Assembly (NCBI GenBank): GCA_937928775.1
Contig: CALFVI010000034.1
Location: forward strand, 19,008 to 83,007
Source: an uncultured Elioraea sp.
GTDB lineage: Bacteria > Pseudomonadota > Alphaproteobacteria > Acetobacterales > Acetobacteraceae
DNA length: 64,000 nt
Direction: 5' to 3'
Shown piece after piece: positions 2,562 through 6,989 of this stretch; within the stretch, counting starts at the first letter, position 1; each line of letters starts with the position of its first letter. The notes beneath the pieces were generated by a model. That model saw only the letters and a list, made by a program, of their open reading frames with translations, did not search any database and was not told the origin of the DNA. Both the position numbers and the translations under genes were made by a program.

Positions 2562-3755
2562 TCAGGCAGCGAGCGCGGCCACCCCGGGCAGGGTCTTGCC
2601 CTCCATCCACTCAAGGAAAGCGCCACCCGCTGCCGAGACGTAGGAGAGCTCCTCCACCACGCCTGCCTGGCGCAAGGCGGCCACCGTATCTCCCCCTCCG
2701 GCGACGGAAAGGAGCGAGCCTGTCTTGGTCAGCTCCGCCACGCCTTTGGCGACGCGCACCGTCGCCGCCTCGAAAGGAGGGGTCTCGAAGGCGCCGAGCG
2801 GCCCGTTCCAGATCAGAGTCCGGCAGGTGCCGAGACGCGCGAGGATCGCCTCGCAGGTGAGGGGGCCAAGATCGAGGATCATTGCCTCCTCCGGCACGCG
2901 ATCCACCGTCACCGTCTCGGTCGGCGGGTTGGGTTTGAACTCGCGCGCCACCACCGCATCGAGGGGCAGCACGATCGCGCAGCCGGATTGTTCCGCCCTC
3001 GCCACGATCTCGCGCGCCGTGGCGTGCAGGTCGGGCTCTTGCAGGCTTTTGCCGACACCAAGCCCCCGCGCGGCAAGAAAGGTGTTAGCCATCGCCCCGC
3101 CGATGATCAGCACGTCGACCCTACCCACCAGGTTGCCCAGCAGGTCGAGCTTGGTCGAAACCTTCGCCCCGCCGACAATCGCGGCAACAGGCCGCGCGGG
3201 CGTGCCGAGCGCCTTCTCCAGCGCCTCCAGTTCCGCCTGCATCAGCCGCCCAGCATAGGCTGGCAGACGGTGGGCGAGCGCCTCGGTCGAGGCATGCGCG
3301 CGATGTGCAGCCGAGAAGGCGTCGTTGACGTAGACGTCGCCAAGTTTTGCCAGCGCCTCGGCGAAGGCCGGATCGTTCTCCTCCTCGCCGGGGTGAAAGC
3401 GCGTGTTCTCGAGCACAACGATGTCGCCCTCTCGCAAGCCGCCGACCGCGCGTTCCGCCGGCTCCCCGATGCAGTCGTCAGCGAAGGCGACCGCGCGGCC
3501 GAGCACATCGCTCAACGCCTCCGCGACGGGCCGAAGCGACATCGAGGGCACGCGCTTGCCCTTCGGCCGGTCGAAGTGGGAGAGCACGATCACCTTCGCG
3601 CCCTTCTCGGCGAGCTCGCGGATGGTGGGCAAAAGGCGCTCCAGGCGGGTGAGGTCGCTCACCCGCCCGTCCTGCATCGGCACGTTGAGGTCGGCCCGCA
3701 GCAGAACCCGTTTCCCGCGCGGATCGAGTGCATCGAGCGTGCGAAAGGCCGCCAT
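2562..3755 (-). CDS. pgk: Phosphoglycerate kinase
   Basis: [72 protein letters not shown]. Confidence 0.99.
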
Positions 3756-3756
3756 C

Positions 3757-4770
3757 TCACAGCCTCCCCATGAGGGCTGCGGTGTCGCACATACGGTTGG
3801 AGAAGCCCCATTCGTTGTCGTACCAGCTCATCACCCGCACCAGCGTGCCCTCGATCACCGCGGTCTGGGTGGCGTCGAAGGTCGAGGAGGCCGGGCAGTG
3901 GTTGAAGTCGACACTCACCAGCTTCTCCTCGTTGTAGCCGAGGATGCCCTTGAGCGGGCCCTCGGCCGCCGCCTTCATCGCTGCATTCACCTCCTCCTTC
4001 GTCACCGGGCGTTGCACGATCGCATCGAGCGAGACGAGCGAGACGTTCGGGGTGGGGACGCGGATCGCCGTGCCATCAAGCTTGCCCTTCAGTTCGGGAA
4101 TGACGAGGCCGATCGCCTTCGCCGCCCCGGTGGTGGTCGGGATCATCGAGACGGCGGCGGCGCGCGCGCGATGGAGATCACGGTGCAGCGTGTCCACTGT
4201 GCGCTGATCGCCCGTATAGGCGTGAATAGTCACCATGTAGCCGCGCGCCACGCCGAAGGCATCGTGCAGCACCTTCACCACCGGAGCGAGGCAGTTCGTG
4301 GTGCACGAGCCGTTGGAGACGACAGTCATCTCCTTCGTCAGCGTGGTGTGGTTCACGCCATAGACGATGGTGGCATCGGCCTGATCGGCGGGCGCGCTGA
4401 TGAGCACCTTGCGCGCGCCGGCGGCAAGCAGCGGCTGGGCTTTCTCCTTGGAGGTGAACAGGCCCGTGCACTCCATCGCCACATCGACCCCGGAGAGTGG
4501 CAACTGCGCAGGGTCCTTGATCGCGGTGACCTTGATCGGGCCCCAAGAGCGGTTGCCGTGGCGAATGGTGATGGTGTCGGCGCCCGTCTCGACCAGCCCC
4601 GGGAAACGCCCATGCACGCTGTCGTAGCGGAACAGGTGCGCATTGGCCTCCACGCTGCCGAGGTCGTTGATCAGCACGCATTCGAGATCGTCGCGCCCGG
4701 ATTCCACCATGGCGCGCAGAACGAGCCGGCCGATACGCCCGAACCCATTGATCGCGATCTTCACCGCCAT
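3757..4770 (-). CDS. gap: Type I glyceraldehyde-3-phosphate dehydrogenase
   Basis: [53 protein letters not shown]. Confidence 0.99.
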
Positions 4771-4812: not shown

Positions 4813-6696
4813 TCAAGATAACCGGCGGAGCACGGCTTGCGCCACCCCTTCCGGCGTTGGCCGCTGCACGGGTGAGCCTGCCGCCTGCGAAGGCGGCGCA
4901 CCCGTTTCGGGCCCGAGGAACAGGCCAGAGAGGCCGAGCCAGCGGCCCCAGCCCTGGGCAATGCCGCATTCGATGCCGACTCGCAACACCCCACCGAGCA
5001 CGAGCGCGCGCCACGCCTCGTCCTGGGCAGAGAACAACTCGAAGCAGGGCAGCGAAACGACGGCGACTGCCACTCCCTGCGCCTGCAGAATTTCGCGCGC
5101 GGCGAGCGCGACAGCCACCTCCGTCCCGCTGGCGATCAAAGTCGCCTGGCGCGGGCCGGCTGCCTCAGCCAGCACGTAGCCGCCGCGCGCCGACAGGTTC
5201 TCAGCCGTATGGTTGCCGCGCACGGCGGGTCCGACCTCTTCGCTCACCACGAGGACGGAGGGGCCGTCGTGCCGAGACGCCGCCAGCGCCCAAGCCTCGG
5301 CCAGCTCCACCGCGTCTGCGGGGCGGAACACGAACAGGTTCGGGATGGCGCGCAACGCGGCGAGGTGGTCGTGCCCGCTCCAGGCTCCGGCGATGGCGCC
5401 ATTGGCTGCCGCGCTGTCCGTCCCGTCCTCGCTCAGCACGGCGATCACACGCCTTTGCAGGCGCGCCGCGAAACGAAGGGCGGGACGAAGGCAATCGGCC
5501 TCAGCAAGCGCGGTGCCGCCGACGGGGATCGCGCCGCCGTGCGCGGCAAGCCCGCCGATGGCCGATGCCAGAGCCTGGCGTCGCCCTCGCGTCGAGATCG
5601 GCACACCCCCCCGGCTTCCGGACGGGGAAGCCGCCCCGTTCGACGGCGCACGCGCCGCACCGGAGCCGTCGGACAGATCGATAAGCTCGGGGATGGCAGC
5701 AGCCAGGATCGCCAGCGCCTGCCGGCTCGCCTCCGCGGTTGCCATAAAGGATCGGCCGGCGGCGAGCTGCGTCTTCCAGGCGTCGAGCCCGAAGCGCCAA
5801 GCCTCCGGCAGACGACCCAGAAGCGCACGGTCGAACTCGTCGCGCAAGGGGCTCCTCTGGTGGCGGCGGCGCCAGGCAAGCCGTTCCCGCGCGCCGCGCC
5901 GCGCCGCCTCGGCCCAGGCCAGGGCGAGGTCGGCGGGAACCCCCTCCCCGCTGGCCGCCTGGCAAAGCGTGTTGCCGGTGCGGCACAGGATCAAGGTCGG
6001 TCGCGCCGCACGGACCGCGGAGGAGAGCGCGGCCGCGACTTGGTCAGGATCGTCGGCCGCGACCCCTCTCGTCGCCCAACCATGGGCGGCGAAACACCGC
6101 AGCACCTCGTCGGAACCGGGCTCCGCCTCGGCCGCCTCGACCAGAACGGTGAGCCGCGACAGTTTGAGCGCGCCGGCGAGGGAGGCCGCCTCGTGCCCCG
6201 GACCGGCCATCACCTCCTCGGCCGAGGCGATCACCCAAGTGCGGTGATCGACCAGGGAACGGCCGAAGCGGGCGGCGAGAATCCGCTCCGCCATCGCCAG
6301 CCCGACCGCGGTGGCAAGCCCTTGCCCGCCTGCGCCGACAAAGACCGCGGCGTCGTCCTGCCCCGCCTCTCCATGCCCAACAGCTTGGCCGGTCAAGGTG
6401 TCGAGGGCAGCGCGGAGAGGCGCGCCGTTCGCGTCGGCGAGCACGACCCGGTCGCGGTCTGGCCAGTGCGGGTCTGCCGCATCGAACTTCAAAAACCGGG
6501 TCCACAGCACCGTTGCGACCTCGGCCATGCCGAGCGCGAAGCGCGCGCGATCGGCGCTGTGTGCGCCGAGGCAGGTGAGAACGCCGATCCGCAGAGCCCC
6601 CGCCAAAGCCCGGTCGAACCCGGCGCCTTCGTCTGCCGCGACGGCACGCGGCGCGTTCGGCGCGGACTTTTTCCCTTCGACTGCGGTGACGACCAC
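4813..6696 (-). CDS. tkt: Transketolase-like protein, highly divergent, apparently lacking catalytic residues
   Basis: Retains GMAEVATVLWTRFLKFDAADPHWPDRDR, GQGLATAVG, HEAASLAG.LKLS, LAALRAIPNLFVFRPADAVE, ARGGYVL, TLIASGTEV and VVSLPCFELF; GTG start at 6696 after AAGGAG; tkt-gap-pgk synteny. Confidence 0.85.
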   Translation of the reverse strand: MVVTAVEGKKSAPNAPRAVAADEGAGFDRALAGALRIGVLTCLGAHSADRARFALGMAEVATVLWTRFLKFDAADPHWPDRDRVVLADANGAPLRAALDTLTGQAVGHGEAGQDDAAVFVGAGGQGLATAVGLAMAERILAARFGRSLVDHRTWVIASAEEVMAGPGHEAASLAGALKLSRLTVLVEAAEAEPGSDEVLRCFAAHGWATRGVAADDPDQVAAALSSAVRAARPTLILCRTGNTLCQAASGEGVPADLALAWAEAARRGARERLAWRRRHQRSPLRDEFDRALLGRLPEAWRFGLDAWKTQLAAGRSFMATAEASRQALAILAAAIPELIDLSDGSGAARAPSNGAASPSGSRGGVPISTRGRRQALASAIGGLAAHGGAIPVGGTALAEADCLRPALRFAARLQRRVIAVLSEDGTDSAAANGAIAGAWSGHDHLAALRAIPNLFVFRPADAVELAEAWALAASRHDGPSVLVVSEEVGPAVRGNHTAENLSARGGYVLAEAAGPRQATLIASGTEVAVALAAREILQAQGVAVAVVSLPCFELFSAQDEAWRALVLGGVLRVGIECGIAQGWGRWLGLSGLFLGPETGAPPSQAAGSPVQRPTPEGVAQAVLRRLS

Positions 6697-6989
6697 CGCG
6701 CTCTCCTTCAACCCCCTGTGAACCCGGTCGCTATATTCAGCGCCGGGCCCGCCGGCAAGGCCGAGCGTCGCGCCCGCCCCGTGCCGTCCGTCGGTGCGGG
6801 GCGCGGCTTGCTCTTGCCTCCGGCGCGCGCCTGCCACATCAGGTTTGCTGGGTTCGGGCCCCTCTGGCGGAGGGACCGGCGCGGCTGAGCCACCCGGGGC
6901 CGCGCTCTAGGCGCCGCGATGTCGGACCCCGCCGCCCCGCTCGCCGGGCGGCTGCCTCTCCCGTCCCTCGGGTGCGCGGTGATGGCCTG

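Follow-up and report, generated by a model that had tools for sequence, protein, structure and literature searches.

A transketolase homologue of Elioraea that has lost its active site: a pseudoenzyme-like gene product recurring upstream of gap in Acetobacteraceae

Among the described relatives of transketolase, recombinant human TKTL1 is reported to be virtually inactive, and TKTL1-TKT heterodimers to shift the balance of the reaction (PMC6555833). The present study deals with a transketolase-like gene (tkt) found in a 64,000-nucleotide stretch of DNA (hereafter, the window; contig CALFVI010000034.1, assembly GCA_937928775.1) from an uncultured Elioraea sp. of the family Acetobacteraceae. The gene, whose product is referred to as P0001, stands at the head of the gene order tkt-gap-pgk and appears to encode a transketolase (Tkt) devoid of nearly all of its catalytic residues; such copies are called degenerate, or dead, below. 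The NCBI label "transketolase-like TK C-terminal-containing protein", used for Acetobacter, Komagataeibacter, Gluconacetobacter and Lichenicoccus, stands for dead gap-linked Tkts of this kind as well; it names no function, and other records still say transketolase. In PMC5908849, four tkt loci of a Gluconacetobacter xylinus strain are listed as transketolases, uncommented. No description of a dead gap-linked Tkt was found in the open-access literature searched, and in one supplement of PMC6191907 neither transketolase nor GOX0507-0509 gave a match.

A lost active site within a predicted transketolase fold

P0001 was compared with Escherichia coli TktA at 21 positions, which we take to be the active-site residues of that enzyme; positions within rewritten loops are approximate. 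Part of this list is confirmed in PMC7661550 and PMC3657141. P0001 keeps two of the 21 sites, H100 (H108 in P0001) and G114, and H108 has been lost too from the sister alleles G002 and P0009. On the PP side, the changes from TktA to P0001 are H26>R50, H66>N90, D155>A159, G156>E160, E160>A164 and N185>A189, and H261 is deleted; the remainder are R358>A321, E411>R373, F437>E399, Y440>C402, H461>E423, D469>I435, H473>W439 and R520>E486, with a gap at S385. In functional terms, the GDG...N motif for thiamine diphosphate (ThDP) and Mg is absent, alanines standing in place of the Mg/diphosphate ligands D155 and N185. The cofactor-activating E411 and the pyrimidine-stacking F437/Y440 are replaced as well, the H100 equivalent is all that remains of the substrate sites (H26, H66, H100, H261, H473, D469), and the phosphate site (R358/S385/H461/R520) is gone.

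The original prediction, made from the letters of the window, had all functional motifs replaced. This holds for 19 of the 21 sites, but not for H108 and G114; likewise, the SGHPG motif is indeed lost, but the segment aligned with it is ADRAR, one residue off the predicted DRARF. The predicted losses of the ThDP/Mg motif, the active-site His and the activating Glu agree with the alignment (D155, N185, H261 and E411).

The Pfam TK N, pyr and C domains of P0001 all score above their cut-offs, whereas the TIGR00232 score, 276 bits vs a cut-off of 682, misses the equivalog threshold. An AlphaFold2 model based on a 60-row alignment reached a predicted local distance difference test (pLDDT) score of 83 and a predicted template modelling score (pTM) of 0.84, and pLDDT values below 50 were confined to the N-terminus, one C-terminal loop and the former cofactor/substrate loops (residues 106-116, 345-366 and 426-438). 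Foldseek analysis of a first model (16-row alignment) gave a template modelling (TM) score of 0.78 to solved transketolases, in line with the preserved fold that had been proposed. The three-domain fold is thus predicted to be intact, and the low-confidence loops at the old active site are probably disordered. Judged from its sequence, P0001 is no member of the active transketolase family and is pseudoenzyme-like; annotations and metabolic models that count the gene as a transketolase are probably wrong.

Second transketolases and the distribution of degenerate copies

A true Tkt elsewhere in the genome, as the original prediction envisaged, is present. The assembly (G000, 81.5% complete) holds one other full-length tkt, cbbT on contig C24, with 21/21 sites, which lies in a Calvin cycle operon read from the translated open reading frames (ORFs) as cbbR, cbbF, cbbP, cbbT, cbbA, cbbL, (cbbS), cbbX and cbbE. 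Neither gap nor pgk was found in the 18 kb read around this operon. The closest named homologues of P0001 are those of Elioraea, and its identity to the nearest canonical Elioraea-type orthologues is 48-56%. Among nine other genomes compared within the genus, four (G002, G004, G006 and G007) combine a degenerate gap-linked tkt with cbbT, and in the other five (G001, G003, G005, G008 and G009) the gap-linked tkt is canonical and the matches listed include no further full-length tkt. The dead copy of G004 is in pieces, and the gap, pgk, terC and prk genes of that genome are likewise frameshifted, which makes assembly errors probable. The replacement Tkts are unrelated to each other: cbbT serves in Elioraea, and a type 43-48% identical to cbbT is found elsewhere. 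As a side observation, cbbL and cbbX lie between cbbA and cbbE in G000 (L001); in G002 and G004 (L036, L037), cbbE directly follows cbbA, and cbbL/cbbX were not found in the 16 kb read, so RuBisCO of these two genomes is encoded elsewhere or missing.

A motif scan of GTDB genomes returned at least 119 loci, including degenerate copies from Acetobacter nitrogenifigens, A. sacchari, Acidisoma and Lichenicoccus. The gene occurs in 25 of the 27 nearest A. nitrogenifigens relatives, where it retains 1-4/16 sites and encodes a product of 620-760 aa; 23 of these copies sit 12-90 bp upstream of gap, and one is located elsewhere. Named proteins of Komagataeibacter xylinus, K. rhaeticus, Gluconacetobacter diazotrophicus PA1 5 and several Acetobacter have 0-2/16 sites in all 11 cases checked. 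For a family-wide sample, gap was searched in 120 genomes, about one per genus, and the stretch upstream of it was read in 107 previously unseen ones, a copy being called degenerate at ≤10/16 sites. This yielded 56 canonical copies, 22 degenerate copies (three cut by contig ends and four still with 9-10/16 sites), five partial, unclassified copies, and 24 stretches without tkt. Within the last group, a canonical family-type copy is located elsewhere in three genomes and a displaced divergent copy in two, and the other 19 showed other tkt types only.

The degenerate state is associated with a second tkt. In the family sample, another tkt was present in 22/22 degenerate vs 21/56 canonical genomes (Fisher p = 8e-8, a value that is overstated, since kin are not independent), and examination of 50 of the motif-scan loci gave 22/23 degenerate vs 6/27 canonical genomes. 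In the first sample, all 11 degenerate genomes had a second tkt, ten of the second copies having 20-21 of 21 sites and that of G000 having 21. The three gap-linked Tkts that differ at one active-site position only (15/16 sites; L241 of G197, L272 of G148 and L275 of G141) all belong to genomes with a second tkt, as would be expected for early decay.

Two genomes show the gene uncoupled from gap. The G157 copy, dead with 1/16 sites and a frame of 642 codons, is followed by acnB, gap-pgk being located on a different contig; that of G161 is divergent (sites not counted) and lies 4.7 kb from gap. G157 (L326, L327) appears rearranged, as its gap-pgk stands behind an acetyl-CoA hydrolase/transferase gene. 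Further tkt genes of the family deserve mention for their own sake. L318 and L319 (G143, G220) hold an additional tkt, possibly acquired horizontally, in which D155E and an AAQFNRPG segment of enterobacterial appearance are found. The gap-linked Tkt of L061 and L162, which are titled Asaia bogorensis, is canonical and shares 71-76% identity with the Elioraea-type P0010, in contrast to that of acetic acid bacteria; these labels may be wrong.

The dead state has most likely arisen repeatedly. In a 69-row tree, the Elioraea dead alleles fall within canonical Elioraea Tkts, and they nest there also when the active-site columns are removed (support 99 and 97); on the latter tree, the dead state requires at least two, and up to six, changes. 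Of 41 Elioraea-diagnostic residues, 15 are found in the Elioraea dead alleles, three in the Acetobacter group and none in the others, and the approximately unbiased (AU) test rejects a joint Elioraea and Acetobacter dead clade (p = 0.018). At least two separate origins are thus well supported by these comparisons, and more than two are probable.

Selection, conserved residues and candidate functions

The frame of P0001 contains 0 internal stops across its 627 codons, and the uninterrupted ORF with a good ribosome-binding site (RBS) that had been noticed at first was found again: it starts with GTG, 6 nt downstream of AAGGAG. Neutral simulations of the P0001 gene at 0.27 substitutions per site, equal to dS between it and the nearest relative, produced 4.8 stops on average, and 0/200 runs stayed free of stops; at 0.13 substitutions per site, 4/200 did. 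Since stops were nearly unavoidable in the simulation, the open frame is not a matter of chance. Between G000, G006 and G007, summed indel lengths are multiples of three. Sequencing error or a pseudogene was rejected as an explanation, because the open frame is common to four independent genomes and the ratio of nonsynonymous to synonymous substitution rates (dN/dS) is not near 1.

This ratio was calculated by the NG86 method among the dead alleles of G000, G002, G006 and G007. Whole-gene values were 0.27-0.35 in five pairs, with bootstrap upper limits ≤0.44. In all six pairs, windows fixed beforehand as ±4 residues around the TktA sites gave 0.43-0.80, the remainder 0.19-0.27 and the C-terminal domain 0.04-0.12, and the neighbouring genes gave 0.03-0.08 (gap), 0.06-0.12 (pgk), 0.09-0.10 (terC) and 0.04-0.06 (cbbT). 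Constraint has thus nearly vanished from the old active site, and it is as strong in the C-terminal domain as in the neighbouring enzymes. As dS is normal in the conserved parts (0.48-1.17 in the C-terminal domain), the constraint acts on protein and not on DNA; a DNA-level cause such as an internal promoter or RNA element was rejected in view of normal dS across the gene, and an Rfam scan found no match inside the P0001 gene. The Acetobacter-relative copies gave whole-gene values of 0.03-0.17 in 11 pairs. Simple decay was checked within the genus: five members have a canonical tkt at this position, but purifying selection acts on the dead branch, whose dN/dS is not near 1. The original prediction of a pseudoenzyme under selection is upheld, as dN/dS outside the old active site is much lower than 1. 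With its intact conserved frame, expression signals read from the sequence and purifying selection after catalytic loss, P0001 is to be regarded as a probable pseudoenzyme on these computational grounds.

Three dead groups (n = 9, 24 and 21; 54 sequences) were compared with 69 canonical family Tkts over 400 conserved columns. All three retain 118 of these columns. The Elioraea and Acetobacter groups have both lost 104 columns, of which 67 are universal transketolase residues that include the cofactor/substrate motifs. The kept segments comprise FD...P.WPDRDR, G.A.AE..LA.RFG.SLV.HR.W, D..R.A.R.AA, LA.LRA.P...FRP...E, the Arg/Trp linker helices and most of the C-terminal domain. Family-specific residues account for 15 of those kept, and S147, R152, W154 and R229 are invariant in 54/54 dead sequences. 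E169 (TktA E165), D401/R404/R408, LAALRAIPN, SLPCF and GW.RWLG are presumably transketolase subunit or domain contacts, and the placement of kept segments in the dimer core and opposite to the active site is likewise assumed from known transketolase structures.

Our slight preference is for the reading that the ancestral gap-linked Tkt lost its ThDP and substrate sites beside an intact cbbT and was kept for a likely non-catalytic, inherited job. A second Tkt would have arrived first, relieving the catalytic constraint on the gap-linked one; active-site residues would then have been lost, and the folded protein retained for the non-catalytic job. The dead protein probably remains a homodimer, because the kept residues include the presumed contact segments, and surfaces off the active site (RFGRSLVDHRTW, R229, the Arg/Trp linker helices and the C-terminal domain) may bind a macromolecular partner, the protein acting as a scaffold or regulator. 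Since the pattern repeats with unrelated replacement Tkts, the job is most simply read as one already done by the ancestral active enzyme. Operon polarity alone does not account for the pattern, given the uncoupling from gap in G157 and G161 and the clean deletions in several genomes. A wider proposal, on which our judgment is evenly balanced, is that the housekeeping Tkt of Acetobacteraceae has a hidden second, non-enzymatic function: each time catalysis passes to another Tkt, the gap-linked copy would give up its active site, with the C-terminal domain and the same Arg/Trp motifs of the back face kept independently in Elioraea, acetic acid bacteria and several other lineages.

A number of observations weigh against a retained function. 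The gene is dispensable, as a family-type copy was not found in 19/107 genomes (two of the 19 being fragmented assemblies); among the 27 relatives of A. nitrogenifigens, two small genomes (G100, G107) showed no copy, and 2/25 of the copies present have a frame break (L180, L198). In one degenerate genome, G044 (L074, 7/16 sites), a second full-length tkt was not found, which might be due to an assembly gap or to a Tkt of the split type. The whole-gene dN/dS of the Elioraea clade is several-fold above that of its neighbours. A 43-row tree built from all columns unites every dead sequence in one clade (support 96), a grouping that is ascribed to long-branch attraction. Finally, no enrichment of family-specific residues was found among the kept columns (15/59 vs 71/225 for universal ones), so that the need to fold may by itself explain much of the conservation.

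The last point is also what would be seen if a redundant gene with high expression were slowly decaying, selection acting only for translation (no polarity on gap-pgk) and folding (no toxic aggregates) up to the moment of its clean deletion. We regard this course as improbable. Redundancy does precede loss, graded states (15/16, 9-10/16 and 0-2/16 sites, then absence) are found, and the gene is gone in about one-fifth of the sampled genera, gap then standing beside the upstream divergent gene. The dN/dS values of the Acetobacter relatives (0.03-0.17) and of the Elioraea C-terminal domain (0.04-0.12), however, are those of a working protein, the normal C-terminal dS (0.48-1.17) places the constraint at the protein level, the gene persists away from gap, and clean deletion is possible, yet 25/27 relatives of A. 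nitrogenifigens keep a product of 620-760 aa. An equally improbable alternative, close to the non-catalytic heterodimer partner of a true Tkt named in the original prediction, is a regulatory heterodimer: the second, active Tkt, here that of cbbT, would be titrated or altered in activity by pairing with the dead subunit, as human TKT is by TKTL1. Segments that we take for subunit contacts are retained, and an active Tkt is present in every well-assembled dead case but one. A precedent is given by the human TKTL1-TKT pair (PMC6555833). Loss of both halves of the shared site (PP D155/N185/H26/H66/H261; Pyr E411/F437/H473) nevertheless predicts a heterodimer that is wholly inactive, not retuned; the dead subunit would also have to function beside a replacement Tkt that is unrelated from lineage to lineage, and it keeps invariant family-specific residues that these Tkts lack.

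The original prediction offered a scaffold or regulator role for glyceraldehyde-3-phosphate dehydrogenase (GAPDH) and phosphoglycerate kinase (PGK). Such a role, specific for these two enzymes, would be either CP12-like or channelling, with co-expression from the operon, and we rate it as marginally less probable again than slow decay or a heterodimer. The dead gene lies 12-90 bp 5' of gap in 23/25 Acetobacter relatives and directly upstream of it in other groups, and the 18 kb read without gap/pgk at the C24 cbb operon suggests that the tkt-linked Gap and Pgk probably also serve the Calvin cycle. Against this, the position before gap is simply ancestral, the full-length gene stands apart from gap-pgk in G157 and G161, and Gap persists at 67-68% identity in genomes without the dead gene. 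Co-distribution with the gluconeogenic pyruvate phosphate dikinase (PPDK, TIGR01828) is loose and clade-confounded (25/30 keepers vs 9/22 losers) and was rejected as a lead. A complex prediction of dead Tkt residues 24-627 with Gap scored 0.00 vs a mark of 0.32, which has no bearing either way on binding. A new catalytic or small-ligand activity in place of transketolase chemistry is very improbable: Acetobacter relatives share some new residues near the old site (e.g., QVEQL and ..W.P) and have a low whole-gene dN/dS, but the replacement residues vary among lineages, even among Elioraea alleles, and the old-site loops have dN/dS of 0.43-0.80 in Elioraea and pLDDT <50.

Gene context and comparison with known systems

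The features of the locus are collected in Table 1. P0001 is presumably expressed from its own putative promoter and RBS. The RBS and the TTGCCG..TATAGC pair are also found in the dead alleles of G002, G006 and G007, and TTGCCC..TATAGC precedes the canonical alleles L013-L015; the predicted promoter was absent from the output of a strict consensus promoter scanner.

Table 1. Features of the tkt-gap-pgk locus (positions in the window).
Feature	Coordinates	Strand	Remarks
Putative pseudo-transketolase ORF (P0001)	4813..6696	minus	627 codons, GTG start; PP, Pyr and C-terminal domains
RBS AAGGAG	6703..6708	minus	6 nt 5' of the P0001 GTG start
Predicted sigma-70-type promoter TTGCCG-17 nt-TATAGC	6730..6758	minus	read from sequence
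Retained PP-domain motif RFGRSLVDHRTW (residues 143-154)	6235..6270	minus	S147, R152 and W154 family-specific, invariant in 54/54 dead sequences
Retained Arg/Trp-rich linker helices (W261-R290)	5827..5916	minus	conservation comparison and model
C-terminal (TKC) domain, residues 505-595	4912..5184	minus	most constrained part, dN/dS 0.04-0.12
gap (GAPDH)	3757..4770	minus	catalytic SCTTNC motif present; 42 bp downstream of P0001
pgk (phosphoglycerate kinase)	2562..3755	minus	third operon gene, directly after gap

Divergently from the dead tkt lies terC, and directly upstream of terC, at 6846-6934 (+), a match to the Rfam terC RNA motif RF03067 was observed (33.5 bits, E = 0.012, below the gathering score of 39.9). 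In many other Acetobacteraceae, a gene for a small proline-rich predicted lipoprotein (PP.QR.F.P.AG.PP) with no Pfam match is located divergently upstream of tkt-gap-pgk (L303:164-688 and at least 60 loci), often accompanied by a hemA-like gene. It adjoins gap where the dead tkt is deleted, and no clear copy was seen in G000.

If a non-catalytic job of the gap-linked Tkt is real, nature would have supplied separation-of-function mutants in these convergent pseudo-transketolases, and they would reveal what the transketolase C-terminal domain does as well as a new partner, protein or RNA, in central metabolism. To our knowledge, the role of this domain is an open question, and within P0001, which lacks the catalytic residues, no other part is under stronger constraint. 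More generally, repeated bacterial pseudoenzymes of core metabolism may be seen as natural experiments, in which the residues surviving separate losses point to an ancestral second function. As the gene is present in tractable industrial bacteria (K. xylinus, K. rhaeticus, Acetobacter species and Ga. diazotrophicus PA1 5), direct testing is possible.

In comparison with the bacterial TktA-type transketolase (TIGR00232, EC 2.2.1.1), which includes the canonical gap-linked Tkt of Acetobacteraceae, P0001 is alike in its three Pfam domains, predicted fold, operon position and promoter-like site, but differs in keeping 2/21 sites, in cofactor loops that are deleted or rewritten and in a score below the cut-off. 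Human TKTL1 is also a transketolase paralogue, reported to be inactive alone and to act through a partner (PMC6555833). It differs from P0001 in being eukaryotic and of unrelated origin, and in that TKTL1-TKT heterodimers keep activity, whereas P0001 has lost both halves of the active site.

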